The translations under genes and the position numbers were made by a program. This document shows, in pieces, positions 2-18,300 of a stretch of DNA of 32,000 nucleotides. Source of the stretch: Planctopirus limnophila DSM 3776 (lineage in GTDB: Bacteria; Planctomycetota; Planctomycetia; Planctomycetales; Planctomycetaceae); assembly GCF_000092105.1 (NCBI RefSeq), contig NC_014148.1:420001-452000 (forward strand), in the 5' to 3' direction. Position 1 is the first letter of the stretch. Every line of letters starts with the position of its first letter. A model generated the notes under the pieces. It was given only the letters and a program-made list of their open reading frames with translations. It searched no databases and was not told the DNA's origin.

Positions 2-1288
2 GGGTTGTCTGCCGGTGCTGCTTTTGGCTGCAAATACCCGGCACTCCTCTTCGTGGTCATCCCCATCGGCCTGGCAACGATCATTCGGTTTCCACGTTTC
101 CATAAGACCGACAGCTCTGCGAGTGAAAATCCATCAGCCAGGTCACGCAGCACATGGTGGGTCTGGCCACTGGTCTTTTCTGCCGGCGTGCTCGTCTTTG
201 CTGGCCCCTGGCTGATTAAAAACTTCTGGCAAACCGGGAACCCCGTTTATCCCCTGCTCTACTCTGTCTTTGGTGGCCTCGACTGGAATGCGGCACTCAA
301 TGAAAAATGGAGGCGTGGGCATGCCCCACCCCATTATTCGCCCCTTTCGTTTGTTACCGATGTTTACGACATCCTGGCCCGCAGTGATTGGCAAAGTGGC
401 CTCATTCTGCTGGGCTTACCTCTCTGCTGGATTTTGCCTGCCGCTCGCAAAAAAAATCATGAACAACCCGAGGATTCCCCAGGCGTTCTCCTCCTGGCTC
501 TCTTGTTTCTGGCATGGTTCTATGCCACCTGGTGGTTGTTCACACACCGGATTGACCGCTTCTGGGCACCAATGCTCCCTCTGCTCTGCCTGATCTCGGC
601 TGCAGGGCTAACGCGCTTTTCTCAGAGTGTCCCCCATGCAGTCAGGCAATCCCTGATGGTCCTGCTAGGGGCATCGGCAGTCTTCAATTTCTCGATCAAC
701 ACCGGCCCCGTCGGTAACTACAACTCATGGCTGACCAAACTCTCTGCGGCCAGCGATTTCACTGCGAGAACCACTTGCCCCGAGATCGCCGCCATCAATC
801 AGGCTATTGAGGAGGGTGCACTTCCCCAAGACATTCGCGTCCTCATGGTCGGAGAGGCAGAAATCTTCGATGCACGTTTCGATTTGAGATACAACACCGT
901 CTTCGATGTATGTTTACTGGAAGAGTGGTGTACTCACCCAGACGGCCAGTGGCGTACCGCCGATGAGATTCGGGCGCGCCTGGCACAAGCAGGCATTACC
1001 CATCTCTTCGTCAATTGGCGGGAAATTCTGCGTTATCGAACGAGCTATGGCTACACCGACTTTGCGAATCCCAGGAGCATCGAAAAGCTCCAGCAGATGC
1101 AGCTGATTGGCGATCCGCTTCGATGGCCCGAAGGGATTGGTGAACGAAATGCCGACGATCTTTCCGTTACAGACCGTCAACTGATTGAAAACTGGGCACC
1201 GCAATTGATTCAAGGCCTCGGTTCCAATCAGAAGCTGATTACGGCACAACTCTTTCCAGTCATGACACGGCCCATCGAGGCGAAGTGA
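2..1288 (+). CDS. Integral membrane protein, C-terminal part (5' end outside window); possibly a GT-C/ArnT-PMT-like glycosyltransferase family member
   Basis: The frame is open from the window edge to the stop at 1286-1288. The N-terminal half has several hydrophobic segments (LLFVVIPIGLATII, WVWPLVFSAGVLVFAGPWL, LLLALLFLAWFYATWWLF) and is followed by a soluble C-terminal domain. The family assignment rests only on this topology. Confidence 0.6.
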   Translation, partial: GLSAGAAFGCKYPALLFVVIPIGLATIIRFPRFHKTDSSASENPSARSRSTWWVWPLVFSAGVLVFAGPWLIKNFWQTGNPVYPLLYSVFGGLDWNAALNEKWRRGHAPPHYSPLSFVTDVYDILARSDWQSGLILLGLPLCWILPAARKKNHEQPEDSPGVLLLALLFLAWFYATWWLFTHRIDRFWAPMLPLLCLISAAGLTRFSQSVPHAVRQSLMVLLGASAVFNFSINTGPVGNYNSWLTKLSAASDFTARTTCPEIAAINQAIEEGALPQDIRVLMVGEAEIFDARFDLRYNTVFDVCLLEEWCTHPDGQWRTADEIRARLAQAGITHLFVNWREILRYRTSYGYTDFANPRSIEKLQQMQLIGDPLRWPEGIGERNADDLSVTDRQLIENWAPQLIQGLGSNQKLITAQLFPVMTRPIEAK

Positions 1289-1336
1289 TTACCTGTTATA
1301 CGGATTCCAATATTCAACGGCGTTCCTTGGTATGGC

Positions 1337-1440
1337 GTGGCTGGGGTTGAGCGTCTTCGCGAACCCCCAGTTCGTACCGAAAATACGAAAATCCGAAAAT
1401 CCGAAAATCGCTGGGGGTTCGAAGACTCAACCCCAGCCAC
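1337..1440. repeat. Long imperfect palindrome (two inverted copies of a GTGGCTGGGG...CCCCCAG hairpin unit) with a tandem 8-mer loop; possible bidirectional terminator or REP pair
   Basis: The left arm is 1337-1370 (gtggctggggttgagcgtcttcgcgaacccccag). The right arm is 1411-1440 and is its reverse complement apart from two CG insertions. The 40 nt loop holds about 4 copies of cgaaaat(a/c). The element sits between convergent genes that end at 1288 (+) and 1520 (-). Confidence 0.8.
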
Positions 1441-1519
1441 CCGCCGAGTCAGACTCATCCAGGCCATCACCATGATGAGTCCGGCCCCCATGAGTCGAAG
1501 GAAGTAGCCGTCGAAAAAC

Positions 1520-2473
1520 TCAGGCTTTGCGATAGACGATTCCCGTATCAATTAACTGAAAGCCACTCGAAATCAGCACAGCCATCGCAGCCGGGTCTTC
1601 CATGTTGGCGTGAGCCTCCATCAGGTCGACCTGGTCATCTTTGAGTTGTTTGCTGACATCGCATAACAGAGCCTGTCCATAGCCTTGCCGGCGATGTTCA
1701 GGAGCCACATGAATCCCATGCAGACCAATCGCCCGCTGTTGCCATTTGCTCGAATACATATCGAGCCCACAGATGGTCACCCAGCCGACGGGTAGATCCT
1801 GTTTTTTGAGGACCAGTCCCAGCCTGGCCGTTTCGAGACGACCTCGATTGGTAAGCGTCCAGAAGTCGCGCGGGACAGGATCATCCAGCAATCGCAATTC
1901 CGTCGATCGGCGGACACGCATCAGCCGCACATTGATTGGATCTCGCTGACCAATTACTCGCTGGAACACCCCGATCATGCTCTGCGGACGATAACCGAGG
2001 GATGTAAAGAACGGCTTCGCGAGAACATCTGATTCCAGAAATCCAGAGGCTTCGCTGCCGCCATACAGACCACTCCAGTAAGGATTGAAAGGGTCTGCCG
2101 GCCCGGCCAGTAAAACCTGGGCACCATGCGAGAGAAGATAACCTTCCGCCTGTTGAACCAATGCTCGTCCAATGCCGCGCCCACGAAAAGCCGGGTGAAC
2201 GACCAGAGCACAGATCACACCTGTCGTCGAATCGACCGAGGCGCGATTGCTGCCGACACCAAATCCGGCATGGACAAAGCCAGCCGGCTGACCATCCACA
2301 AACGCCAGGATCAAGCCATGCCGGTCAAAGTGAGGCTGCGAGAGCACGAAAAAGTCGAGCTCGTCCGTTCCGTGCATGATTACCGCACCACGACCCAGCT
2401 CCGCACTATTCCATAGTTCGGCTATCACGGGGACATCATGGTTTCGAAACGAACGAAACTCCAACAAACTCAC
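1520..2473 (-). CDS. GNAT family N-acetyltransferase (two GNAT-like halves)
   Basis: The ORF is 317 aa with a GTG start. Acetyl-CoA binding motifs of the Q/RxxGxG/A type occur twice (FRGRGIGRALVQQAE and HRRQGYGQALLCDV). Confidence 0.85.
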   Translation of the reverse strand: MSLLEFRSFRNHDVPVIAELWNSAELGRGAVIMHGTDELDFFVLSQPHFDRHGLILAFVDGQPAGFVHAGFGVGSNRASVDSTTGVICALVVHPAFRGRGIGRALVQQAEGYLLSHGAQVLLAGPADPFNPYWSGLYGGSEASGFLESDVLAKPFFTSLGYRPQSMIGVFQRVIGQRDPINVRLMRVRRSTELRLLDDPVPRDFWTLTNRGRLETARLGLVLKKQDLPVGWVTICGLDMYSSKWQQRAIGLHGIHVAPEHRRQGYGQALLCDVSKQLKDDQVDLMEAHANMEDPAAMAVLISSGFQLIDTGIVYRKA

Positions 2474-2645
2474 TCCCTGGTTTTGATTGCAATCTAGTCA
2501 GATCAACTTCACGCGGAGAAGATGTCTTTCTGAACCCTTTCCATTTCACACGATCATCATCAATCACAGTTTAATCATGCAACAAGGTCGCATGGAATGT
2601 CCACGCGACCTTGTTGTGATCGACAAGTTTTCACCGATTTCTCGT

Positions 2646-6151: not shown

Positions 6152-6224
6152 GGCCCCATCGTCTAGAGGCCTAGGACATTGGATTTTCAGTCCAAGAACT
6201 GGGGTTCGAATCCCCATGGGGTCA
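6152..6224 (+). tRNA. tRNA-Glu (anticodon UUC)
   Basis: A hand-folded cloverleaf fits. The acceptor stem is GGCCCCA/TGGGGTC and the D arm is GTCTAGAGGCCTAGGAC, as in E. coli tRNA-Glu. The anticodon stem is TTGGA/TCCAA with loop TTTTCAG, giving anticodon TTC. The T arm is TGGGG-TTCGAAT-CCCCA and the discriminator base is A. CCA is not encoded. Confidence 0.95.
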
Positions 6225-6493: not shown

Positions 6494-7582
6494 GTGACCA
6501 CGCTTCCTCCAACGACGTTTTCTCCAGATTACGCCACTGCCCGGCAGCGATTTCAGCAATCAGCGTCTCGGCTCGGCTGGAGGTTGGAGTCCTATTCGAT
6601 CGGTCTTCATGGCCCGACTGGCGAAGAGTTAGAGTTCGATGTCGCCCTATCGCATGGCGAAGTGACCGACAAGGTTCTGGTCGTTTCATCGGGTCTGCAT
6701 GGCGTCGAAGGATTTTTTGGCTCAGCAGTCCAGGTGGCCTGTATGGAGCATTGGCTCAGTACCGAAGCTCCCTCGGTGAAATGTCTCTTTCTCCATGGGC
6801 TCAACGCCTATGGATTTGCCTGGCTTCGTCGCTTCGATGAAAGCAATGTAGACCCTAATCGCAACTTTCTGCTTCCCGGCGAACACTTCGAAGGTGCTCC
6901 GGATGGTTATCAGCAGCTGGATCGATTTCTGAACCCGCGACATTCCCCATCACCATGGGAACCATTCACCTTAAAGGCTTTGTGGCTGATTGCTCGCTAC
7001 GGCATGCCGGCACTGAGGCAGTCGATTGCCGGCGGACAATACACGTTCCCTCAAGGTCTTTTCTTCGGTGGAAAGGGGCCATCACGCTCACAGCAAATTC
7101 TACGTGAACACATGCCGCTCTGGCTCAATGGATGCCGGCAGGTCGCTCATCTCGACTTTCATACGGGATTAGGCCGCTTTACTACTCACAAGCTGTTAAT
7201 CGATTACCCCTTGAGTGAAGCGCAGCGAAACTGGTTCTCCCACTGGTTTGGTGCCGATTCCTTTGAAGCCATCGATTCGGCTGAGATGGCTTACGAGGCC
7301 CGCGGTGGATTTGGCCGCTGGTGTGTCTCGCAACGGTTAGCTGCCAACTACCTGTTTGCCTGCGCTGAGTTCGGTACTTACGGTGGGATTCAAGTTTTAG
7401 CAGGCTTAAGGGCTGAAAATCAGGCCCATCATTGGGGCAGCCCGCAAGATCCATCGACGATCCGGGCGAAACGACGCTTGATGGAGCTGTTTTGCCCGGC
7501 ATCACCAACATGGCGATCCCAATGTGTCACGTCTGGGCAAAGATTGATTGAGCAGGCCCTGCAAGGATTATTGCAATCATGA
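6494..7582 (+). CDS. M14 family zinc carboxypeptidase-like protein (DUF2817-type)
   Basis: The ORF is 362 aa with a GTG start. It contains SSGLHGVEGF (an HxxE zinc-ligand context), NVDPNRNF and HLDFHTG, which are characteristic of the succinylglutamate desuccinylase/M14-like fold. Confidence 0.8.
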   Translation: MTTLPPTTFSPDYATARQRFQQSASRLGWRLESYSIGLHGPTGEELEFDVALSHGEVTDKVLVVSSGLHGVEGFFGSAVQVACMEHWLSTEAPSVKCLFLHGLNAYGFAWLRRFDESNVDPNRNFLLPGEHFEGAPDGYQQLDRFLNPRHSPSPWEPFTLKALWLIARYGMPALRQSIAGGQYTFPQGLFFGGKGPSRSQQILREHMPLWLNGCRQVAHLDFHTGLGRFTTHKLLIDYPLSEAQRNWFSHWFGADSFEAIDSAEMAYEARGGFGRWCVSQRLAANYLFACAEFGTYGGIQVLAGLRAENQAHHWGSPQDPSTIRAKRRLMELFCPASPTWRSQCVTSGQRLIEQALQGLLQS

Positions 7583-7659
7583 ATTGCCGGCAGTCGTTCA
7601 TCCAAAACTGAGCCAGTTCACAGTGGAACACTGCAGTGCGGCTTCACGATCTTTACTTT

Positions 7660-7833
7660 ACGAGCCGGAAGCGTCAGCGACGGGCATTTCCCAATTTCTT
7701 TTTCGACTATTAAATTTCGCCATCAAATCGACTTGCCGTGGTACTAGCGGAAATTGAGAGTCCCCGTCGCTCACGCTTCCGGCTCGTGGATGGTTATTGG
7801 GGGGTTCGCGAACCGTAGACCGATAACAGTGCC
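7660..7833 (+). repeat. REP/MITE-like element: 25 nt inverted repeat (7660-7684 vs 7763-7788) plus an ~83 nt repeat unit (7751-7833), copy 1
   Basis: acgagccggaagcgtcagcgacggg at 7660-7684 is the reverse complement of ccccgtcgctcacgcttccggctcgt at 7763-7788, with 1 mismatch. The unit at 7751-7833 recurs at 13609-13691. Confidence 0.8.
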
Positions 7834-8026
7834 ATTCGGGTCGGGACTCGTTTCTGCTTCCCGCTGCGATGGCTGTCAGGCTGGAGGTGATGGACACACG
7901 TCGGGTCGTGATTGTGAAGGTTGCGGCATCGTATGGCGACGAAGTGCGGTGTAGCATGGAATCGTAATCAGCGGTTCGTCGCAACTCATTTGCCCGTCTG
8001 ACGCATCAAGATTGACAAGTCCATGC

Positions 8027-8085
8027 CGCACCGCAAAACTGCGGTAATCTTCTACCGCACTTCGGCGGTCGAATACCTGTTCGGC
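8027..8085 (+). other. Left boundary of the cassette array: imperfect hairpin followed by an R'-type core GTTCGGC, with no matching R''; possibly a truncated attC or an attI-like junction
   Basis: GTTCGGC at 8079-8085 is identical to the R' boxes of attC1 and attC6. The hairpin is accgcaaaactgcggta / taccgcacttcggcggt (8027-8069). I found no GCCGAAC-type partner within about 150 nt upstream. Confidence 0.4.
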
Positions 8086-8101
8086 GGGCGAGGTCTTGAA
8101 G

Positions 8102-8521
8102 GTGGCTGACAGATTCCGAGACAAACGATGGCGCAACTTCCGCCGACGTGCCGATTACGCCCCGCAGAACGTCTACCGCCATCGCACCCACGGATGGGAG
8201 TACATCCCGGTCCATCCGTTTGGTGATGAACCGGAGGTTTTAGCGCGACTCGGGCTGCGCCCGGAAGACTGCCGAACGGCCGATGCCTGGTGGGGCATCG
8301 ACGGCGACGCTACGCTGCTGGAGTCGGGGGTCGTGGGCACGCTGCCGGGCCCGGCTCGGCTGTTTGCCAAGCCAATGCCTCACGCAGACGAGCGGTGGGT
8401 GTACTTGGTCGCGGTGTTCGATGCCCCGTTTGTAACCCGCGTCGAGTTCGAGGCGGTGATGGTCAGGTTCGTGGAGGCCGGGTTCCCCGACGCGACGCAG
8501 TTCGATTGGCGGGTGGGGTGA
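8102..8521 (+). CDS. Cassette 1: hypothetical protein, G+C-rich
   Basis: Third codon positions in this frame are strongly G/C-biased. GAGG at 8090-8093 lies 8 nt before the GTG at 8102, and the TTG at 8096 is an alternative start. No family was recognised. Confidence 0.6.
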   Translation: MADRFRDKRWRNFRRRADYAPQNVYRHRTHGWEYIPVHPFGDEPEVLARLGLRPEDCRTADAWWGIDGDATLLESGVVGTLPGPARLFAKPMPHADERWVYLVAVFDAPFVTRVEFEAVMVRFVEAGFPDATQFDWRVG

Positions 8522-8542
8522 TCGTCCCTACCGCTCCCAGAC

Positions 8543-8633
8543 GCCGAACTAGGCGCCCAACCGGACGCCGGGGAGGCACTGCAGCGTCAACCAAATCATG
8601 CCGGCCCGTCGCCGGTTAGCTTCGTAGTTCGGC
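8543..8633 (+). repeat. attC site 1 (91 bp)
   Basis: R'' is GCCGAAC at 8543-8549 and R' is GTTCGGC at 8627-8633, an exact reverse complement. The inner arms pair over AACCGG / CCGGTT with bulges. Confidence 0.8.
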
Positions 8634-8662
8634 ATACATACTGAAAAATTAGAGCGCCTACC

Positions 8663-9262
8663 TTGACTCCTATTTCGACGCTGCCATACGAACAATCTCT
8701 GCTTGCGTTGATTCGCAAAGGTGAGAGCGTCGAGCTTGAACTGAAAACGACCGTTCCGAGTCCGACCGCGCTCGCACAACTCATCTCTGGATTTGCAAAC
8801 GCATCAGGCGGCACAATCATCATTGGCGTGCAAGAGCCAGATACCGTTGTCGGATGCGACTGGCAGACCGTTTCTCGGGCATTTGAAAGAGCGCAGCAAC
8901 AACTAAACCCAGTACCGGATTGCTACCTTCATCAGGCGACGATTTCAGGCAAGATTGTCGGTGTCCTGAATATCGCGAAATCGTCGAAGCCAGTGGTGTC
9001 ATCAGGTGGAGCGTTTGTTCGCGAGGGAGATCGCACTCGTCCGATTACCGCACCAGAGATCGAGCAGCGCTTGGCCACGCCCGGTGCAATTGATACATCG
9101 GCGATTTCAAAAGCGTTGGCGGACAATACTGCAACAATTGAACGGCTCACCGCAGCGATTTCTCGCGCCCAAAGCCTTCATGGGCAGTGGCTTGGTTACG
9201 CAATCGGGTTTGTGTTGGGTATCTTGCTTCTGTCATTGCAAGCTTCATCTACGCCGTCCTAA
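8663..9262 (+). CDS. Cassette 2: AlbA_2 (Schlafen-like, divergent AAA/DNA-binding) domain protein with a C-terminal transmembrane helix
   Basis: GESVELELKTTVPSPTALAQLISGFANASGGTIIIGV matches the AlbA_2 signature (E-x-x-x-[LV]-E-[FL]-K ... AFANxxGGxxxIGV). The C-terminus WLGYAIGFVLGILLLSL is hydrophobic. The only start available is TTG, so the start position is uncertain. Confidence 0.7.
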   Translation: MTPISTLPYEQSLLALIRKGESVELELKTTVPSPTALAQLISGFANASGGTIIIGVQEPDTVVGCDWQTVSRAFERAQQQLNPVPDCYLHQATISGKIVGVLNIAKSSKPVVSSGGAFVREGDRTRPITAPEIEQRLATPGAIDTSAISKALADNTATIERLTAAISRAQSLHGQWLGYAIGFVLGILLLSLQASSTPS

Positions 9263-9286
9263 CGGCCAACAATGCCGGACAATAAT

Positions 9287-9377
9287 GCCGAACAATCGGT
9301 TCAACCGGAGCCGCGGGCCGCGCGGTTTCTGAATTCAAGGTTGGTTGGCCGCGGCCCGGTTAACCGTGACGTTCTGC
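9287..9377 (+). repeat. attC site 2 (91 bp)
   Basis: R'' is GCCGAAC at 9287-9293 and R' is GTTCTGC at 9371-9377. The arms GGTT-C-AACCGG-A-GCCGCGG-GCC and GGCCGCGGCCCGGTTAACC pair, leaving three unpaired bases in the left arm. The core is nearly identical to that of attC5. Confidence 0.85.
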
Positions 9378-9395
9378 CAAGACTGGAGAAGCTTC

Positions 9396-10064
9396 ATGCG
9401 AACTAGCCTTCCTGTTCTGATAGCCTGCGTCTTGGTCGCGGCATCTGGCAAAGCCCAAGACAAAGATGAGCGTCAGGTGGACGTCCCCAAATTGATCAAC
9501 GCACTTGCGTCGGAAAATCCAGCACCAACGGAACGTAGCGGACCGGATCTCAAATTTCCTTCCGGCTATGATCGCAAGAAACAAGCCCCAGTTCGAAGCG
9601 CGAAGAGCCAGCTCAAGGCTTTGGGGCCTGCTGCGTTCAAGTCACTTATTGAAAATTGGGGCGACCAGCGGTACTGCTTAACGTATTCCGTTGGAATCAA
9701 CGGATACATGAAAAATGCGACCGTCGGAAAAATGTGCCGAGTTATTGTGTACGACCAGATTCAACCTTACGGAATATGGCCTCGCACAGAAGGCGACCCG
9801 CGCGGCAAGCCAAAGCGGCCGTCTTATCCCGGCGTGTTCCTGAATGATCAAAAAGCTGCGACAAGATGGCTGGAAGAGCACAAAGACAAATCACTTTTTG
9901 AGATTCAATTGATGGTCATCGATTGGGTCATCGCACGGGAATCCGAGAGCCCGAAAGACTTTACTGACGAAGAACGCGCAGTCATGCGGGAAATTCGAGA
10001 AAAGCTCGTTGAATCGAAGAAGCCGATGACACGGGGCAATTACTACATGGATGATTATGACTGA
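9396..10064 (+). CDS. Cassette 3: secreted hypothetical protein (signal peptide)
   Basis: The ATG at 9396 is preceded by GGAGA. The N-terminus MRTSLPVLIACVLVAASGKAQ is a typical Sec signal. The track's longer ORF from 9345 begins inside attC2. Confidence 0.65.
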   Translation: MRTSLPVLIACVLVAASGKAQDKDERQVDVPKLINALASENPAPTERSGPDLKFPSGYDRKKQAPVRSAKSQLKALGPAAFKSLIENWGDQRYCLTYSVGINGYMKNATVGKMCRVIVYDQIQPYGIWPRTEGDPRGKPKRPSYPGVFLNDQKAATRWLEEHKDKSLFEIQLMVIDWVIARESESPKDFTDEERAVMREIREKLVESKKPMTRGNYYMDDYD

Positions 10065-10071
10065 AGTAAAG

Positions 10072-10163
10072 GCAGAACAAAGCGTTGGACGCGGAGCCGC
10101 CGATCGCGTCGTTCCTGAAGTCAATGTTGATTGGCGGCGGCCCGGTCAACGCCACCGTTATGC
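10072..10163 (+). repeat. attC site 3 (92 bp)
   Basis: R'' is GCAGAAC at 10072-10078 and R' is GTTATGC at 10157-10163. The arms GCGTTGGAC..GCCGCCG and CGGCGGC..GTCAACGC pair, with bulged bases. Confidence 0.85.
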
Positions 10164-10852
10164 GAAAAAAGATGTCCTCCCTTGCTGACTTCAAAGAATT
10201 GGTCGACCACATTTGCAAGCGTCACCGAATGTACGTTTGCGACGGGACGTTCTACGAAGTTGCCGCATACATCCAAGGGTTTGCAGCCGCGATGACGGAA
10301 TCACCATTCGGAGGTGAAAATAGATTTGCGTTCAACGAGTACGTCACTCTAGCCTGTGGATTCCCGGCAAAACTGGCCTGGCCGTTTGTACTGAAGAAGG
10401 CAACACAAACTGACGAAGATGCGATTGCCAAATTGCACACATTGTTGACCGCTTACATCGAAGCAGTTGACGGAAACCGTGTCGCACAACTGCTTTCAAC
10501 CGAACGAATGAATGGTTCGGTGCGAGATGCTGAACCTCAGGTCATTTGCTGGCGACTATTTTCGAGGGCGCTTCATCGCGGTGATCAAATAGAGATCGAG
10601 AAACATGCATTGCAACGTGACGACATTCAAATTCTATGGTCGAGTAGTTATCCTGCTGACTTGATTCCAAAGATGGATGAAATCGCGGAATCCTATTCGA
10701 TTCCAGTGCTGTTTGTCTCCGACGATGGAATGCTATCACGTGTGATGACACCGGATTTTGGCGAGATCGAGTTGGAAATGCTCGACGGATCTTGGAAGAT
10801 CGACCCCAGCCCAATAATCCGGCAACGAATCTATGCCAATACGAAGACATAG
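10160..10852 (+). CDS. Cassette 4: hypothetical protein
   Basis: The ATG at 10160 lies inside the R' box GTTATGC, and the ATG at 10172 is an alternative start. The frame is open to the TAG at 10850-10852. No family was recognised. Confidence 0.6.
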   Translation: MRKKMSSLADFKELVDHICKRHRMYVCDGTFYEVAAYIQGFAAAMTESPFGGENRFAFNEYVTLACGFPAKLAWPFVLKKATQTDEDAIAKLHTLLTAYIEAVDGNRVAQLLSTERMNGSVRDAEPQVICWRLFSRALHRGDQIEIEKHALQRDDIQILWSSSYPADLIPKMDEIAESYSIPVLFVSDDGMLSRVMTPDFGEIELEMLDGSWKIDPSPIIRQRIYANTKT

Positions 10853-10858
10853 GGAATC

Positions 10859-10948
10859 GCGTAACAATCCGATGGACCGAAGCGGTGGATCGGCCGCTTC
10901 CTGATGGAAAATTTATTTGCCACCGCTCGGTCATCGGTGGCGTTACGC
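10859..10948 (+). repeat. attC site 4 (90 bp)
   Basis: R'' is GCGTAAC at 10859-10865 and R' is GTTACGC at 10942-10948, an exact reverse complement. The arms CCGATG-G-ACCGA-A-GCGGTGG and CCACCGCTCGGTCATCGG pair, with two bulged bases. Confidence 0.85.
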
Positions 10949-10969
10949 CCCAACAACAACTCGGTCGTT

Positions 10970-11485
10970 ATGATCCCTGACTACTCGATGGAATTGTGCT
11001 TTTCCGAGTCTGGCAAGGCTCTCGTCCGATCGCGTGTAGCAGACCTTTGTGACGACGAGTCTGCAGACATTGTCCGAGAGCTTCCTTTCGACGATGCGAA
11101 AGTGGCTGTCGAAATTTGTTTACTCGCACCACCTAATGCCCCGCACGAGATGCTTGACGGGTTCTCCGTTCAGAACGGTGTCTCATCCTGCGGGATTGTC
11201 GATCTTGAATACTCACCAACGAGCCAGTACAGCCAGATCAACGGAAGCTTTAGTCTCGAATTCTGGCCACGAACTCGGCGGCTGCAATACATCTTCTTCG
11301 CTTCAATGACATTCCGAACCCAAATTACGAAGCTTCTTGCCGAGTGTGGCGGAACATGGGGTGCTATTATATTTGAATCGTCGCTTCCAATTGAGTTTTG
11401 GTCTCGCGAACGGGGGCGATTTAATGATGACCGGCCAGATAGACAAGATGGCAAGCTATTGCTACCGTCGGAACTAAAATCCTAA
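10970..11485 (+). CDS. Cassette 5: hypothetical protein
   Basis: The first ATG after the attC4 R' box is at 10970, and 10988 is an alternative start. The frame is open to the TAA at 11483-11485. No family was recognised. Confidence 0.55.
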   Translation: MIPDYSMELCFSESGKALVRSRVADLCDDESADIVRELPFDDAKVAVEICLLAPPNAPHEMLDGFSVQNGVSSCGIVDLEYSPTSQYSQINGSFSLEFWPRTRRLQYIFFASMTFRTQITKLLAECGGTWGAIIFESSLPIEFWSRERGRFNDDRPDRQDGKLLLPSELKS

Positions 11486-11488
11486 ATG

Positions 11489-11580
11489 GCATAACAAGCC
11501 GTTGCACACGGAGCCGCGGGCCGCGCGGTTTCTGAAATCAATGTTGGTTAGCCGCGGCCCGGTGAACCGGGTCGTTATGG
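11489..11580 (+). repeat. attC site 5 (92 bp)
   Basis: R'' is GCATAAC at 11489-11495 and R' is GTTATGG at 11574-11580. By hand alignment the core ggagccgcgggccgcgcggtttctgaaatcaatgttggttagccgcggcccggt differs from the attC2 core at only 3 positions. Confidence 0.85.
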
Positions 11581-11590
11581 CCAGAAAATC

Positions 11591-11920
11591 ATGAAACTAG
11601 GAAAACCGGAAATCAGTTTGGCCGTCTCTGACATCAAAGCGTCTTTAGTGTTTTACGAGGCACTCGGATTCAAGCGTGTCGAAGGAGCCGAAGAGGAAAA
11701 GTGGGTTGTTGTAGCACAACCAGACCTCCGAATTGGATTATATGAAGGTCACGTTGATGCGAATTCATTGACCTTTTTCGGAGGCGATATAGAAGCGATC
11801 TCGGTAAAGCTTCATGAAGCAGGTTTCGAACTCAAACAGGGTCCCGAAACTGAAGAAGATGGTAGCATTGGAGCGAAAGCAGTCGATCCAGACGGGAATC
11901 TGATCTATTTCAATACGTAA
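11591..11920 (+). CDS. Cassette 6: VOC family protein (glyoxalase/bleomycin-resistance/dioxygenase fold)
   Basis: The 109 aa product starts with the pattern LAVSDIKASLVFYEALGF and ends with AVDPDGNLIYF. Both are typical of the paired beta-alpha-beta-beta-beta VOC fold. Confidence 0.85.
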   Translation: MKLGKPEISLAVSDIKASLVFYEALGFKRVEGAEEEKWVVVAQPDLRIGLYEGHVDANSLTFFGGDIEAISVKLHEAGFELKQGPETEEDGSIGAKAVDPDGNLIYFNT

Positions 11921-11930
11921 CCCATCACGG

Positions 11931-12023
11931 CCATAACAAAACGGATGCAGGCAACGGCTCGAATGGCGTCTGTCGTGTGATCGACGCCTCCCGCTCGCCG
12001 TCGCCTGATCCGGGGCGTTCGGC
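11931..12023 (+). repeat. attC site 6 (93 bp)
   Basis: R'' is CCATAAC at 11931-11937 and R' is GTTCGGC at 12017-12023. The arms CGGAT-G-CAGGCAACGGC and GCCGTCGCCTGATCCG pair, as do GGCGTC and GACGCC around the loop tgtcgtgtgatc. Confidence 0.75.
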
Positions 12024-12082
12024 GGCGAAGGGCTTTCGCGGGTGATACGGATGTCTTTAGGCCACAATGGAGGCTTCGGCGG

Positions 12083-12634
12083 ATGTTGTCGAGAGACGGT
12101 GCCCGGCTGCAAGTATTCCTTGACCTCCAACGGCATGGGCCGCGGCGGGGGCCCGAGGAACTTGTCATCCTTGACGAGCATACAATTGAGCGGCCGTGGG
12201 GTTGGGTGTTCTTTTTCACCACTCGTGGCTGCCGTGATGGTGATCTCACATACGCCGTTGGCGGAAACGCCCCCTACATGGTCAACCGAGATGGCAGCAT
12301 ACGTCTTGCTGGGACAGGTCGTCCGATAGAGGATTACATTCGAGAGTACGAGTCTGAATTGGAACGGCAGTCAGGTGCATGGGAGTTGGTCATCAGTGAG
12401 CCGTCACCATGCTCAACAACGGCTGCAAAAAGCATCCGCGCGGCGCTCGGTCTATCGATTGCTGAAGTAGGTGCTATTCGCCATCGCCTGCCGGGTCTCG
12501 TTTCGGCCGGGGCATACGCAGACCTCGAACCCTTGTATGGGCGTCTGGTGGACGCTGGCATACGGGCGGAAATCCGGAAAGCTAAGGTGAACGAGGCCGA
12601 ACAAGACGCTGCACCTGACCGCGGCGGCGGGTAA
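12083..12634 (+). CDS. Cassette 7: Imm35/YrhB-like immunity-type domain fused to a ribosomal L7/L12 C-terminal-like domain, G+C-rich
   Basis: The N-terminal half (ERPWGWVFFFTTR...GGNAPYMVNRDGSI...IEDYIREYE) resembles the YrhB/Imm35 family. The C-terminal part (AAKSIRAALGLSIAEVGAIR...LVDAGIRAEIRK) aligns by eye with the L7/L12 CTD (IKAVRGATGLGLKEAKDLV...LEEAGAEVEVK). GGAGG lies 10 nt upstream of the ATG. Confidence 0.7.
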   Translation: MLSRDGARLQVFLDLQRHGPRRGPEELVILDEHTIERPWGWVFFFTTRGCRDGDLTYAVGGNAPYMVNRDGSIRLAGTGRPIEDYIREYESELERQSGAWELVISEPSPCSTTAAKSIRAALGLSIAEVGAIRHRLPGLVSAGAYADLEPLYGRLVDAGIRAEIRKAKVNEAEQDAAPDRGGG

Positions 12635-12696
12635 TATGATTCAGAGATCAGCGTCTCACTCGCCGCCCGGCAGGTGAGCAAAAGCGTTCGTCTTCG

Positions 12697-12778
12697 GCAG
12701 AATGTGACAAGATCAAATGGGACAGCGGGGGGATTCGGAACGTCAGATCAACAAAACCCCCGCCCGCCTGAGTTCTGC
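12697..12778 (+). repeat. attC site 7 (82 bp, degenerate); right end of the array
   Basis: R'' is GCAGAAT at 12697-12703 and R' is GTTCTGC at 12772-12778. The inner stem is GCGGGGG / CCCCCGC. Arm lengths are asymmetric, so this is the weakest site. Confidence 0.4.
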
Positions 12779-12901
12779 AGATCGTCGTCAGAACCCATGA
12801 GTTCTGTTTGATTTGCGTTAGTCTATATCTGGATGGCAACGCTTTGGTTATGCTCACTGGAAACAGTTCGCCGAATCCCTTCACAAGGTCATCCGATCCC
12901 C

Positions 12902-13366
12902 ATGAGTATCTTCGATACGATTAAAGGCTGGTTGAACATCGGGGGAGTGAAAGTCGCCCTGCAGCTTGATAACAAACAGATTGCCTGTTCGGGCAACGAG
13001 ATCGCTGGTTCGGTCGAGCTTTCTTCCAAGGGTGAGAAAGAAATTCTGAGGCTCACGTATCGGTTTTTGACTCGACATATCACCGGCACCGGCCAGGCCC
13101 GCTCTGTCGTCGATAAGATTATCGCCGAGACTGTCGAAGAGGTTCCGTTCCAGATGACTGCAGGCGAAATCAAGACGCTGCGGTTCGCGATTCCCTATGT
13201 GATTCCCCCGGAATTTTATGAAACCGGCGGCGTGCTTGGGGCCCTTGGCAAGGCAGGTGCCCTGGTCGTTAACGCCCGACGCTCTTGGCACGTTATGGTG
13301 GTTTGCGACGTACGCGGTACGGCCCTGGACCCGATGTCTATGGTCGAGGTCAAATTGGTCGAATGA
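12902..13366 (+). CDS. SpoOM (Spo0M) family protein, arrestin-like fold
   Basis: MSIFDTIKGWLNIGGVKVALQLDNKQIACSGNEIAGSVEL resembles the N-terminus of the sporulation-control Spo0M family. The ATG at 12902 is preferred over the track start at 12833. Confidence 0.7.
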   Translation: MSIFDTIKGWLNIGGVKVALQLDNKQIACSGNEIAGSVELSSKGEKEILRLTYRFLTRHITGTGQARSVVDKIIAETVEEVPFQMTAGEIKTLRFAIPYVIPPEFYETGGVLGALGKAGALVVNARRSWHVMVVCDVRGTALDPMSMVEVKLVE

Positions 13367-13608
13367 TTTCGCTTGAGTCAATTGAAAGATGGCAATTGGC
13401 AGGTACGCCGGCAGCGCTGGGTGGCACAGGTTGCTCGTCCGCGAGCTACCTGTGTGCCGGAGGCAAAAGAGGTTTGGCTGCCGCAAGCACTGCAATGTGA
13501 GTCCCTGAGGATCACAGATGGGACTCTGCAAGAAAGCGACTCTGCCAGTGCCCTCTGGTGGCTTGGCCGCCCCTGTAGAAACCGGAATTTCAACCGGGCC
13601 ACCCTGCC

Positions 13609-13691
13609 GAAACTGAGAGTCCCCGTCGCTGACGCTTCCGGCTCGTGGATGGATTTTAGAGGGTTCGCGAGCCGTAGACCGATTACTGAGC
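13609..13691 (+). repeat. REP-like ~83 nt repeat unit, copy 2 (direct repeat of 7751-7833)
   Basis: Hand alignment to 7751-7833 gives about 10 mismatches over about 83 nt. The shared core is gagtccccgtcgct(c/g)acgcttccggctcgtggatgg...ggttcgcga(a/g)ccgtagaccgat. Confidence 0.8.
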
Positions 13692-13826
13692 CCCTTGCTT
13701 TTCAAGGATGTCGTCCATCGCAGGCAGGCCCTTTGCATTTGTTGTTCAACCGACATGGCTCACCTTCGATCTACAACCGTGTTCTCAGAGCATTCCCACT
13801 GATCTTCGCGATAAACGACCCTTGGA

Positions 13827-14279
13827 TCAATCACTAAGTTGAGGCCCTTCGGGGGGTTTCAGGAAGGCGAAGAAGATGCAGATGAGGTAGGTGCCATAGA
13901 CGACGGCGGGAAACACCCAGGCTTCAGCAGGTTCATCATTGGCAAAATTGAAGATCGCGACTGTCCCTTCACAGAGCATCAGCAGGGCAATGGCACAGCC
14001 GAGGAAAAACTGTCGCCAGAGGGGAGGTGTGGATATTCCCAGCCGGCGAAACTGTCTGTAGCCGATCGAAGATCGAACCAATGCCGCGATGATCGGCACC
14101 AGGACGACGACACTGATCACTGCCAGATCATTGCCCCGAGCCAACATTTGAACGAACAAAGGGAGAGTTGCCATAATTCCCGGCAAGATCCCGTCCCAGG
14201 CAATGATCTGTTTCCAACTCACCCCAGCACCTCTCCTTCGCTGATGACCAGCAATCGTGGGCTCACTTGCCGCTTCCAT
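13827..14279 (-). CDS. Hypothetical membrane protein (about 4 TM segments)
   Basis: The 150 aa ORF has hydrophobic stretches (ILPGIMATLPLFV, VISVVVLVPIIAALV, FFLGCAIALLMLCEGTVAIF, VFPAVVYGTYLICIFFAF). No family was recognised. Confidence 0.55.
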   Translation of the reverse strand: MEAASEPTIAGHQRRRGAGVSWKQIIAWDGILPGIMATLPLFVQMLARGNDLAVISVVVLVPIIAALVRSSIGYRQFRRLGISTPPLWRQFFLGCAIALLMLCEGTVAIFNFANDEPAEAWVFPAVVYGTYLICIFFAFLKPPEGPQLSD

Positions 14280-14347
14280 GGGCCGCGTATCATGCGATCA
14301 TCAAGGCAGGCAATCATACCTTTGCAGCCCGGTAGCCCGGTAGCGCG

Positions 14348-15026: not shown

Positions 15027-15304
15027 GACTACGACTCCAACGACTCCACTACACTTTCTTGTCTTTGCAGATTCCCTTCTGATCGCCATTGGGCAAGCCG
15101 AACGACTGATTTGTCATCGACTGCTTGCGGAACTCATTCCTGCCAAACTTTCCATCATTCACTCGACAGTTATGGATTATCGACTCCTGAACAGCTAAAA
15201 CATTGACAGTTGTCGATATGTGAAAGTCGTCTGTTGATCCATCGATGATTTCATCACGTCAGACCGATTTCGACATCTGAATCACAACTCTGGCAGTCAA
15301 CCGC

Positions 15305-18300
15305 ATGACAGATCAGACGTGCCAGAAAACAGTTTGTAGAAGGGTTTTCATCGAGATGTACCAGTCTGTATGGCCTTCGTTAACGTTTTCTTTGTGTCTG
15401 CTTGCGTCAACGTCAGCGAATGCTGGCGAAGCGGTTCTTGTAGAAGCACCACCTGAGAAGTCGGCCGGAATCGTGGTGGCCAATCTTGAGCAAACCCCGG
15501 CGAAACAGCCGGCTCAAACGGCCGCAGCAAAGCAACCACCAGCTGCTCCAGTGAAGCAGCCTGTCCGTTTTGTACGCATTGAACTGCCCGGCGAAAAACG
15601 CATTCTCACTTTGGCAGAAGTTGAAGTCTTCAGCGCGGGGAAAAACATCGCCCGCGAGGGAAAAGCCACACAGTCGAGCACTCATGGCGATGGGGTGGCT
15701 TCCCGGGCTGTGGATGGCAACAAACACCCCGATTGGAGCAAAGGGGGGCAGACTCACACTTCTGATGATGGAGAGCAGCAACCCTGGTGGGAACTCGATC
15801 TCGGCAAGCCAGCCAACATTGAGAAGATTGCTGTCTGGAACCGCACTGGTTTTGAAAACCGTCTGTCAGGCTTCTCTCTGATATTGCTTGATGCCGATCG
15901 CAAGGAACTCTTTCGTAAGGCCGATATTGCTGCTCCTCAAGGCCTCGAAATTGACCTCGGCAAAAGTGGTGAACTCCGCTATCTCGCTTACGATGGCAAG
16001 CCCGGCAAAGCGATGCCGAAGGGCGGGGACTCTTCTTCAGGGGCATCTGCTGAACCGCCATTAGCCAATGTCCCGGCTGATTATCGAGACCCCGTCCCTT
16101 TTGCCCTTCAGAAAGACGATGTCGTCGCCATTCTGGGCAACGGATTGGCGGATCGCATGCAGCACGATGGCTGGCTGGAGACGCTCCTTCAGTCTCAACT
16201 CGTGGGGAAAAACGTGCGCATTCGCGATATGAGTGCCAGCGGCGACCGTCCCTACAGCTTTCCAAGAAGTTCCGGCCAGATCTCGATCACTTCATATTTG
16301 CAGCATGTTAAACCCACTGTCGTTTTTGCATTCTTTGGCTACAACGAATCTTTTGATACCAAGCCCGAAGAGTACAAGCGGCAACTCCTCGAGTTTGTCA
16401 AAAAGACCCGTGGAGCTAAGCCGGATGGTAAGGATTTCCCAAGGATTGTCCTCTTCAGCCCGATTGCACAGGAAGATACCGGCAATCCGAATGTCCCCGA
16501 CGGCCGCGCTCAGAACGTGCGCCTGGCGGCTTTGACGCGTGCGACACAAGAGGCTGCCCAGGAAGCTGGTGTCGCCTTTATCGATCTTTTCCATCCATCG
16601 TTGAAACTGTATGAGAAGGCCTCGCAGCCGCTCACGATCAACAGTGTGCATCTGACGGAAGAAGGGAATCGTCAACTGGCGGAAGTGATTGCTTCTGAAC
16701 TTCTGGGCAAGCCTGTCAGTTCGTCACAGGCTTCGGAAAAGTTACGCCAGGCTGTCCTCGATAAGAACCTGCATTGGTGGAATCGCTATCGAGCCTCGGA
16801 TGGCAACGATGTCTGGGGAAGTCGTTCGACGTTGACGTTCGTCAATAATCAAAGCAACGCCGATGTTTTGAAGCCTGAACTCGAGATGCTCGATGTGATG
16901 ACAGCCAACCGCGATGAAGTGGTCTGGGCTCGTGCCGCAGGGAAAGACAAAGCGGTCGATGACAGCAATGTTCCGCCGGCGGTGCCTGTTATTTCGAATG
17001 TGGGTGGTGGGAGCAAAAGCTCCAGTGCCATGAAGGAAGGCACACTCAGTTACATCAGCGGTGAAGAGGGGTTGAAGCAGCTGGCTGTTGCGAAAGGATT
17101 CGAAGTCAGTCTCTTCGCCGATGAGCAGCGATTTCCACAGTTGGTGAATCCTGTCCAGTTGCAGTTCGATACGAAAGATCGACTCTGGGCAGCGGTCTGG
17201 CCAACCTATCCCAAGTGGGAACCACATCAGGAAATGACCGATGCGTTGATTATCCTGCACGATGACAACGGCGATGGTGTGGCTGATCGTTCAACCGAGT
17301 TTGCCAAAGTTCAGAATCCTCTGGGTTTTGAGTTCTGGAATGACGGGGTCATCGTCACCTGTCAGTCGGAACTGCTGTTCCTGCAGGATACCAATGGCGA
17401 CGATTTGGCTGATCGCCGGATCACGTTGCTGCAGGGGCTGGATTCTTCCGATACTCACCATGGTGCCAACAATCTGATCTATGGCCCGGATGGTGGAATC
17501 TACTGGCAGAGCGGTGTCTTCATGGTGCACAACCACGAGCATCCTTGGGGGCCTTCGCTGCAATCGACGGCTTCAGCCATGTACCGGTTTGATCCACGAC
17601 GATTTACGATCTCCATGCATGCAATCAATTCTCCCAATCCCCACGGGACATCTTTCGATTACTGGGGCTATCAGTACGCGACAGATGGAACGGGTGGAAA
17701 TGCCTATCAGGTTCGACCCGAAGGCAATGGATTCAAGATGCACCAACTCCTGAAGAAGGAAGTGCGTCCTGTCACTGCCAGTGAGATCGTCAGCAGTTCG
17801 CATTTCCCCGAATCGATGCAGGGCGATTTCCTCATCTGCAACGTGATTGGCTTTCTGGGCATTAAGCATTACGACCTGGAACGTAATCCCGAAACAGGAA
17901 CGGTCTGGGGTGAGCCTGCCGGCGATCAGCTCACGGTGACAGTCACTAATGCCAATGGAAGCAAAACCGAAGACAAGTCGCGTGGCCTGTTAATGAGCGG
18001 CGACAAGAACTTCAGACCCTCGGATGCCATTTTCGCACCTGATGGCACGCTCTACTTTGCTGACTGGCACAATGCGATTATCGGTCACATGCAGCACAAC
18101 GTGCGCGATCCTAATCGCGATCATTCGCATGGCAGGATCTATCGCGTGAAAGCGGTGGATCGACCACTGCAGAAACCAGTGCCCATCGATGGCCAGCCGA
18201 TTGCCAAACTGCTCGATAACCTCAAATCGCCGGTCGATGGCATTCGTCATCGTACACGAGTGGAATTGAGCGAGCGTGATTCGAAAGAAGTCATTGCAGC

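Follow-up and report, generated by a model that had tools for sequence, protein, structure and literature searches.

A sedentary chromosomal integron of Planctopirus limnophila that has very probably lost its integrase gene

In integrons, the bottom strand of an attC recombination site folds into an imperfect hairpin in which an unpaired central spacer separates the R box from the L box and which also has extrahelical bases and a variable loop; the integrase IntI binds this hairpin and cuts the AAC of the bottom strand at the A/C step, equivalent to G/TT on the top strand (PMC5027507, PMC4889954). Recombination between two attC sites excises a circular cassette, and recombination of attI with attC inserts one beside the cassette promoter, Pc (PMC5027507, PMC4889954). 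Clusters with two or more attC sites on one strand and no intI gene within 4 kb are called CALINs (attC clusters that lack an integron-integrase); they hold five attC sites on average, and nearby intI pseudogenes, found through the C-terminal domain, accompany 15 of 279 of them (Cury et al. 2016, PMC4889954). Members of the Planctomycetes have been recorded to carry integrons as well as CALINs (PMC2426708, PMC4889954), planctomycete integrons were listed by Boucher 2007, as cited in Nemergut 2008 (PMC2426708), and a Planctomycetes-specific attC covariance model has been published (Ghaly 2021, PMC8352920). Here we analyse a stretch of 32,000 nucleotides from Planctopirus limnophila DSM 3776 (NC_014148.1, positions 420,001 to 452,000; hereafter the window) and conclude from its sequence, with a probability of roughly 0.93, that window positions 7838-12692 are a sedentary chromosomal integron (SCI) in a Planctopirus-type chromosome, the integrase gene of which has been deleted. 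The element consists of a 17-codon intI stump on the minus strand, a preserved attI region and seven plus-strand cassettes, each with one open reading frame (ORF) and one attC. An identical array is present in Logan read-set assemblies, for example SRR017854, and a literature search found no publication on this locus or on integrons in Planctopirus.

Like the superintegron of Vibrio cholerae, an SCI of well over a hundred cassettes, the element is chromosomal, its single-ORF cassettes lie on the same strand and are mostly uncharacterised, its attCs are long with a large variable terminal structure, its crossover falls at G/TT and its attI lies beside a divergent intI. It differs in the reduction of intI to a stump, in the shortness of the array and in its attC type, which is 95-99% identical across planctomycete genera and families rather than confined to one genus. 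Class 1 integrons share the recombination logic, the xxxxAAC and GTTxxxx forms of the R'' and R' boxes, the extrahelical bases at positions 16 and 23 and the 6-bp spacing, whereas the window locus lacks resistance cassettes and a 3' conserved segment and is not set in a transposon or plasmid, its attCs are longer, and some of its R boxes, such as GCCGAAC/GTTCGGC, depart at position 4 from the strict RYYYAAC/GTTRRRY consensus. With seven same-strand attC sites, no integrase in 8 kb upstream or 19 kb downstream, cassettes of unknown function and no antibiotic-resistance genes, the locus also falls under the definition of a CALIN. It differs from a plain CALIN in keeping attI and a 5' remnant of intI, the IntI C-terminal domain being absent, and because these parts are still attached, its origin by loss of intI can be demonstrated. 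It thus offers a clean example of CALIN genesis, with attI, the integrase start codon and the deletion zone all visible; in most published CALINs no integrase trace has been detected. The locus adds Planctopirus to the set of planctomycete integrons and leaves the existing knowledge of integrons unchanged, its kind being already documented in the phylum.

Seven attC sites in the window

The original prediction, made from the letters of the window, had read the region as a CALIN-like integron cassette array in which seven short ORFs are each trailed by a palindrome bounded by R'' and R' boxes. This reading is supported by the anatomy of the sites, by matches to a covariance model, by the junction signature and by shared blocks that end at G/TT. 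Six of the palindromes, with the boxes quoted for them, are attC sites (s1 to s6 below). The seventh, at 12697-12778 with the boxes GCAGAAT...GTTCTGC, is not; the true seventh and last site, s7x, was absent from the earlier list because it overlaps the 3' end of the ORF at 12083-12634. The seven attCs lie within 4.2 kb, and all seven plus-strand ORFs between 8.1 and 12.6 kb are cassette-borne. The sites, their R''...R' boxes and their scores with model R2 (described below) are:

8543-8633, plus strand: attC s1, GCCGAAC...GTTCGGC, 40.1 bits, E 2.1e-8, bottom-strand folding z = -2.6
9287-9377, plus strand: attC s2, GCCGAAC...GTTCTGC, 82.6 bits, E 1.2e-19
10072-10163, plus strand: attC s3, GCAGAAC...GTTATGC, 93.3 bits, E 1.8e-22, folding z = -1.4
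10859-10948, plus strand: attC s4, GCGTAAC...GTTACGC, 79.2 bits, E 9.6e-19, bottom-strand folding z = -5.6
11489-11580, plus strand: attC s5, GCATAAC...GTTATGG, 80.4 bits, E 4.6e-19, folding z = -1.3
11931-12023, plus strand: attC s6, CCATAAC...GTTCGGC, 26.8 bits, E 6.7e-5
12596-12692, plus strand: attC s7x, GCCGAAC...GTTCGTC (R' at 12686-12692), 38.9 bits, E 4.2e-8, minimum free energy -24.4 kcal/mol, z = -3.07

The sites are 90-97 nt long, inside the published range, and the AAC of the left end and the GTT of the right end are invariant in all seven as well as in 37 of 37 sites from integrase-linked arrays. Their bottom strands fold with minimum free energies of -18.5 to -26.1 kcal/mol and z of -1.3 to -5.6, and for the six confirmed sites the folding check that had been proposed returned imperfect hairpins over the same range of z. 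RNAalifold predicted a consensus hairpin of 22 pairs for the seven sites, and compensatory changes are seen in 12 of these; no T-tract follows the stems. About 60 nt are common to s2, s3 and s5, which resemble each other as the repeats of V. cholerae (VCRs) do.

Published attC geometry places the first extrahelical base at position 16 and, beyond a stem of 6 bp, a conserved bottom-strand T at 23 or 24, restricts the extrahelical bases to the R''-L'' arm, and allows a central spacer of 5-6 nt and a total length of 57-141 nt (PMC5027507). We located the extrahelical bases by freely aligning the left arm to the reverse complement of the right arm. All arm-versus-arm gaps fell in the left (top-strand) arm, where the unpaired bases had been said to be confined, and the central spacer is mostly 5 nt in the left arm and 6 nt in the right, followed by a 3-bp L box. 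In s2, s4 and s7x both position 16 and position 23 carry an extra base, and a 6-bp stem separates the two; a third is present in s2, s5 and s7x, the last having its extra bases at top-strand positions 16, 23 and 27. Position 23 holds a top-strand A (bottom-strand T) in every site and is bulged in s1, s2, s4 and s7x. For the other sites, the free alignment gave the bulge at 23 alone and a mismatch at 16 (s1), no gaps (s3), gaps at about 20, 24 and 30 (s5), and a single bulge at about 17 with an A.C mismatch at 23 (s6), and the consensus fold leaves the columns for positions 16 and 23 unpaired in all seven. Judged by these predicted folds, the window sites match the published geometry, save for the first extrahelical base.

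The palindrome at 12697-12778 was rejected as an attC. It has a minimum free energy of -10.2 kcal/mol and z = -0.41, with 69 of 200 shuffles folding equally well; it lacks L-box pairing, was matched by neither of our two covariance models, and lies within backbone that is about 95% conserved with Planctopirus hydrillae JC280 (NZ_LYDR01000039.1, locus L023). The two genomes are syntenic on the right side, where window positions 12685-13416, 13714-14327 and 15062-16379 match at 91-95%. Their last cassettes differ, and the identity of about 95% begins exactly at the R' box GTTCGTC, at 12686; because it resumes at this last R', we place the end of the array at 12692 and assign 12697-12778 to the backbone. 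The cassettes span 8080-12686, and of the limits first proposed for the array the start is retained, 8079 being the G of the attI crossover GTT, while the end moves from 12778 to 12692.

Rfam 15 at the gathering threshold matched only a tRNA in the window and no attC. A covariance model built from the seven window sites (R1) and run over the 32 kb with filters off returned these seven only (E 5e-25 to 4e-14). A genome collection was scanned with a 32-nt pattern from the loop common to s2, s3 and s5; 89 stretches matched, nearly all from Planctomycetota, and in these R1 found 305 sites in 80 loci, arranged in same-strand arrays with a spacing of a few hundred bases. The second model, R2, was built from 37 attCs of four arrays that adjoin IntI genes or remnants (loci L078, L004, L025 and L002, from Neorhodopirellula, Novipirellula, Rubripirellula and one metagenome-assembled genome, MAG, of Planctomycetaceae), and contains no window sequence. 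In its training alignment 92.9% of the cells are paired, against 29-44% in slid controls, and 18 of 22 pairs are compensatory. Run with filters off on both strands of the 32 kb, R2 found exactly seven sites, all on the plus strand (E 2e-22 to 7e-5), and none upstream of 8079; elsewhere in the 32 kb neither model gave a match below E of about 0.1, except where the seven sites were weakly mirrored on the reverse strand. The window and the planctomycete integrons share phylum and attC family, R2 recovering all seven window sites. Scores below the threshold of a covariance model had been named in advance as grounds for giving up the attC reading; with R2 as the surrogate model, all seven real sites score above threshold.

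The s3 type (about 92 nt; window 10071-10163) is 95-99% identical to attCs of L078, L004, L041, L009, L034 and many other loci, with bearers that go under the names Planctomycetaceae, Novipirellula, Rhodopirellula, Pirellula, Stieleria, Lacipirellula and Schlesneria. Further contigs, single ones from MAGs named as Phycisphaera, Spartobacteria and Leptolyngbyaceae, were recognised by the loop pattern and the attC model score only, not by percent identity, and may reflect mis-binning or cross-phylum cassette transfer.

Cassette junctions, shared blocks and integrases of related arrays

A crossover at G/TT means that the last six bases of R' belong to the next cassette, so that the R'' of each site should match the R' of the site upstream. 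In the window, R'' agreed with the upstream R' at 7, 7, 7, 6, 6, 7 and 7 of 7 bases, perfectly at five of the seven junctions, and with its own R' at 7, 6, 6, 7, 6, 4 and 6. The R'' box of s6, CCATAAC, is fully complementary to the upstream R' GTTATGG and fits its own R' at 4 of 7 bases. That of s1, GCCGAAC, is fully complementary to the attI core GTTCGGC at 8079-8085, which identifies the start at 8079 as the first crossover point. The four training arrays gave perfect matches to the upstream R' in 29 of 29 cases, compared with 3/35 for the own R' and 5/29 for the R' downstream; among random pairs the rate was 8%.

Blocks shared with other genomes end at the same point. Window positions 8079-9373, covering cassettes 1 and 2, recur at 99.85% identity in contig L043 of a MAG labelled Planctomyces sp., where the two-cassette block lies several cassettes into an array. 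The identity starts exactly at GTTCGGC, preceded by attI in the window and by a different attC in L043, and stops precisely behind the GTT of s2. P. hydrillae also has cassette 4 (L023 1493-2273, 95.8% identity). To judge from these alignments, the shared blocks ending at G/TT point to cassette mobility by site-specific recombination. The GC content is 0.59 at 8-9 kb, 0.50 at 10-11.5 kb and about 0.54 in the flanks, and this unevenness along the array fits a mosaic origin.

Arrays of the same family also stand beside integrases. Searching by tblastn with IntI1 (query confirmed as NF011946, 799.5 bits, full length), we found integrase homologues beside several family arrays. The protein of L078, 46% identical to IntI1, is an integron integrase (TIGR02249, 434 bits, cut-off 265). 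So is P0114 (342 aa; TIGR02249, 449.5 bits), encoded on the 10-kb metagenome contig L097 and reached through a homologue search with an IntI N-terminus followed by a cluster look-up; on that contig R2 found three attC sites on the strand divergent from intI. That the same family forms same-strand arrays beside these verified IntI genes (L078, L097) supports the identification of the window sites as attC.

The integrase frames of the training arrays lie at 1236-2642 (minus strand) in L078, 1924-3135 (minus) in L004, 6934-7998 (plus) in L025 and 7136-7999 (plus) in L002; the C-terminal halves of the L004 and L002 frames seem to be disrupted. The integrases of L078 and of Pirellulaceae carry about 140 extra N-terminal residues ahead of the TIGR02249 region, with the common motif ...W.K.WF..L..FH...P.WEF...V..FL..., whereas the 342-aa IntI of the L097 lineage, the closest to the window attI, has no such extension. 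Three further IntI1-like matches were rejected as integron integrases. In the planctomycete MAG contigs L016 (799-2813), L070 (1-1394) and L007 (3327-5360) a tyrosine recombinase about 33% identical to IntI1, located in or adjoining attC arrays, is paired with an IS91-like transposase, and this pairing suggests an element that targets cassette arrays or travels with them. A stand-alone family of IntI N-terminal domains was also discarded, as alignment revealed its short fragments to be mostly genes cut at contig ends.

These data bear on a different explanation of the palindromes, namely that they are ordinary repetitive extragenic palindromes (REP) or bacterial interspersed mosaic elements (BIME), or else transcription terminators, serving mRNA stability or termination. 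They are intergenic, GC-rich, imperfect and of even size, and a different REP-like repeat really does adjoin the array, at 7660-7835 and 13614-13692. However, REPs would be scattered and found on both strands, and the original prediction had itself named such scattering as contrary evidence; across the 32 kb the palindromes occur solely as a same-strand array, with seven sites confined to 4.2 kb, and the family forms same-strand arrays in 80 other loci too. An invariant AAC/GTT and asymmetric bulges at fixed positions are foreign to REP, the shifted R''/R' complementarity and the blocks ending at G/TT require site-specific recombination, the same type of site lies beside integron integrases in other genomes, and the stems lack a T-tract. 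We consider repeats or terminators a highly improbable explanation.

The attI region and the intI remnant

Immediately upstream of the first cassette we identified two features:

7838-7929, minus strand: delta-intI, the vestigial 5' end of intI, with ATG at 7929-7927, 17 codons (MPQPSQSRPDVCPSPPA) and a stop at 7878-7876
7930-8085, plus strand: attI region (the spacer between intI and the cassettes), with the crossover between G8079 and T8080 of GTTCGGC

Translated leftward from 7929, the window gives the 17 residues and a stop, and the peptide resembles the IntI N-termini of the lineage (MPQSSQSQFD.../MPQSSPSKFD...). The intI ATG of L097 (6213-6215) aligns exactly with window positions 7927-7929 on the minus strand. 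About 92 nt of intI-homologous DNA remain; homology with L023 and L043 stops near 7838-7862, and to the left of about 7838 follows unrelated sequence containing a REP-like hairpin. As far as the alignments can tell, intI was truncated in situ and everything beyond its first 17 codons was deleted.

Homologues of window positions 7838-8086 are found in L023 (two copies), L043 and L056, and in the latter two the attI element adjoins intI N-terminal fragments. Across the five attI copies, which represent four genomes, the sequence hardly varies up to ...CGAATACCTGTT or ...CTACCGCACTTCGGCGGTCGAATACCTGTT; the copies diverge immediately after GTT, and such a break in conservation is the behaviour to be expected of an attI joined to different first cassettes. 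Window positions 7910-8081 align with the spacer between intI and the first cassette of L097 at a mean column identity of 81%, the alignment ending at GTT; with its homology to the spacer beside an intact IntI and its GTT end, the region would qualify as the attI of a complete integron. The integrase that a complete integron has beside its array is missing from the 32 kb, where only 17 codons of its 5' end are left. Because the attI site and the intI stump are retained, the locus is best described, on its sequence, as a decayed complete integron and not as an orphan attC cluster or bare CALIN.

The attI region also contains repeated ACCGCA motifs (8030-8035 and 8054-8059) and an invariant TTGACA at 8012-8017, a candidate -35 element of Pc, with a weak -10 (AAAACT, 17-nt spacer). 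The cassettes are probably transcribed from this retained candidate promoter region on the attI side. A hairpin at 7937-8067 was tried as an eighth attC and rejected, as it was matched by no model and is part of the conserved attI region.

Had the cassettes been inserted at a secondary chromosomal site that was never an integron platform, the integrase gene would likewise be absent, and 95% of the CALINs in the IntegronFinder survey have no intI pseudogene nearby (PMC4889954). Against such an orphan CALIN stand the 81% homology of the sequence upstream of cassette 1 to the L097 spacer between intI and the cassettes, the aligned intI start codon and the end of conservation at the GTT crossover, and we regard it as hardly more probable than the REP explanation.

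The absence of a tyrosine recombinase from the window, claimed by the original prediction, was confirmed. Searches of the 32 kb by tblastn with IntI1 and planctomycete IntI proteins gave a best E of 0.16, and when six planctomycete IntI proteins were used at word size 2 to look for leftovers of intI, nothing above noise came up; the stump was detected solely through DNA alignment to L097, L043 and L056. The Pfam Phage_integrase domain was found neither in 10 of the larger ORFs in the flanks, among them all four that are long enough for an integrase, nor in the two minus-strand ORFs overlapping 7.6-8.1 kb; the ORFs of 13.8-29.2 kb were covered by tblastn.

An integrase could nevertheless lie beyond the 32 kb, an inversion or insertion having split a functional integron whose array is still actively reshuffled. 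Half of the published CALINs share their replicon with an IntI gene, and CALINs are recognised to arise by rearrangement, among other routes (PMC4889954). In P. hydrillae, the homology of attI copy B likewise breaks off at about 7838, and because this breakpoint appears shared, the sequences suggest, by inference, that the truncation of intI predates the split of the two species. Yet the orthologous arrays, with seven cassettes in the window and three in P. hydrillae, have none in common, the P. hydrillae copy of cassette 4 sitting in a second, upstream sub-array; cassettes so wholly unlike despite an apparently shared truncation are most easily explained by an integrase in trans, and the two-cassette block shared with L043 at 99.85% indicates recent movement. 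On the other side, the intI start and 17 codons are in place beside attI, followed by a stop and unrelated sequence, and because this 5' end remains, intI was truncated in situ rather than moved away whole; moreover, no IntI similarity occurs within 8 kb upstream or 19 kb downstream. A functional integron with its integrase outside the window is therefore unlikely, though clearly less so than the two alternatives above, and a second, separate intI elsewhere in the genome is conceivable.

With a decayed integron as the preferred reading, the array would be unable to reshuffle itself once its cognate intI was lost, whereas its cassettes could still be recombined by whatever integron integrase is provided in trans. 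We tentatively raise the possibility, which we hold to be doubtful, that cassette traffic continues after the loss of the resident integrase, fed by a phylum-wide cassette pool. It is raised because the loss of intI apparently preceded the split although the orthologous arrays share no cassettes, because the 99.85% identical two-cassette block occurs in a MAG (L043) whose attI is only 82% identical, and because attC sequences are 95-99% identical between orders of planctomycetes. If this were true, the integrase-less arrays of Planctomycetota would not be fossils; they would belong, as live components, to a network of cassettes mobilised in trans across orders.

Several observations weigh against reading the locus as a decayed integron. 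On the bottom strand, the first extrahelical base would be C rather than the usual G in s4, s6 and s7x, which also sets these three sites apart from V. cholerae; s2 has the G, and in s1, s3 and s5 the base is absent or ambiguous. The folding z-scores of s3 and s5 are modest (-1.4 and -1.3). The model R2 is a surrogate for the attC model of IntegronFinder, and the loci behind it were collected by means of a pattern that itself came from sites of the window; among its four training arrays, L078 alone has a verified full-length integrase, that of L025 being cut by the locus end and those of L004 and L002 looking disrupted. The junctions s3/s4 and s4/s5 are one base off complementarity, and reciprocally so: R' of s3 (10157-10163) is GTTATGC where GTTACGC is expected, and R' of s4 (10942-10948) is GTTACGC where GTTATGC is expected. 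The P. hydrillae site upstream of the cassette-4 homologue carries the expected GTTACGC, and a simple G/TT crossover does not explain the deviation. Finally, a scan of the attI region for the sigma-70 consensus gave no match, planctomycete promoters being poorly defined.

Cassette cargo and flanking sequence

The array yields seven precisely delimited cassettes, including ones with Imm35 and VOC/bleomycin-resistance-like domains, that are testable as mobile units:

8080-8627, plus strand: cassette 1, ORF ending at 8521 with its start at TTG 8096 or ATG 8130, up to 141 aa; no family match
8628-9371, plus strand: cassette 2, ORF 8663-9262, 199 aa; Schlafen AlbA_2 domain (PF04326, E 2.3e-15)
9372-10157, plus strand: cassette 3, ORF from ATG 9396 to 10064, 222 aa; signal-peptide-like N-terminus MRTSLPVLIACVLVAASGKAQ; no family match
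10158-10942, plus strand: cassette 4, ORF ending at 10852 with an in-cassette ATG at 10172, about 226 aa; no family match
10943-11574, plus strand: cassette 5, ORF 10970-11485, 171 aa (gene call from L090); no family match
11575-12017, plus strand: cassette 6, ORF 11591-11920, 109 aa; glyoxalase/bleomycin-resistance/VOC (vicinal oxygen chelate) fold (PF00903, E 6.9e-9)
12018-12692, plus strand: cassette 7, ORF 12083-12634, 183 aa; Imm35 domain (PF15567, E 8.9e-7, 29.4 bits, cut-off 27.5)

The gene limits of cassette 3 were taken from the identical Logan contig L090, where positions 1344-2012 correspond to window 9396-10064. For cassette 4, the ORF start listed at 10085 falls inside s3, and ATG 10172 was preferred. 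The protein of cassette 1 had no match in Pfam or NCBIfam, and the similarity of cassette 6 to the FosA and BLMT families in NCBIfam was weak and far under the cut-offs. The cargo, small and mostly uncharacterised proteins, is typical of chromosomal integrons. It had been described beforehand as mostly uncharacterised, which it is, and as possibly including defence or immunity functions; PADLOC found no defence match among the seven proteins, immunity amounts to the single Imm35 domain, and defence cargo beyond that domain is unsupported.

In P. hydrillae, two attI-like copies lie in one array (L023 551-717 and 2301-2549), and in the second the attI-like sequence runs directly into a truncated attC, that of the cassette-4 homologue (GCGTAACAATCCGA joined to GGAAAAAGG...). 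From its sequence arrangement, the locus looks like two sub-arrays joined by rearrangement.

The genes flanking the array of P. limnophila are transketolase genes, a tRNA gene and a DUF2817 gene. The tRNA gene (6152-6224, Rfam 57.3 bits) is 1.6 kb upstream of the intI stump, with the DUF2817 gene (6494-7582) in between. A direct repeat of about 80 bp and about 85% identity, at 7660-7835 and 13614-13692, brackets the integron segment. Both copies share the core 23-mer GAGCCGGAAGCGTCAGCGACGGG, which was absent from all 96 loci retrieved for comparison, and both lie where the window and P. hydrillae show no conservation. At the left copy an additional inverted partner gives rise to a hairpin with 25-nt arms (7660-7684 and 7763-7787). 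The repeat may be a REP-like element, or one resembling miniature inverted-repeat transposable elements (MITE), of this genome, and is possibly linked to the deletion of intI.

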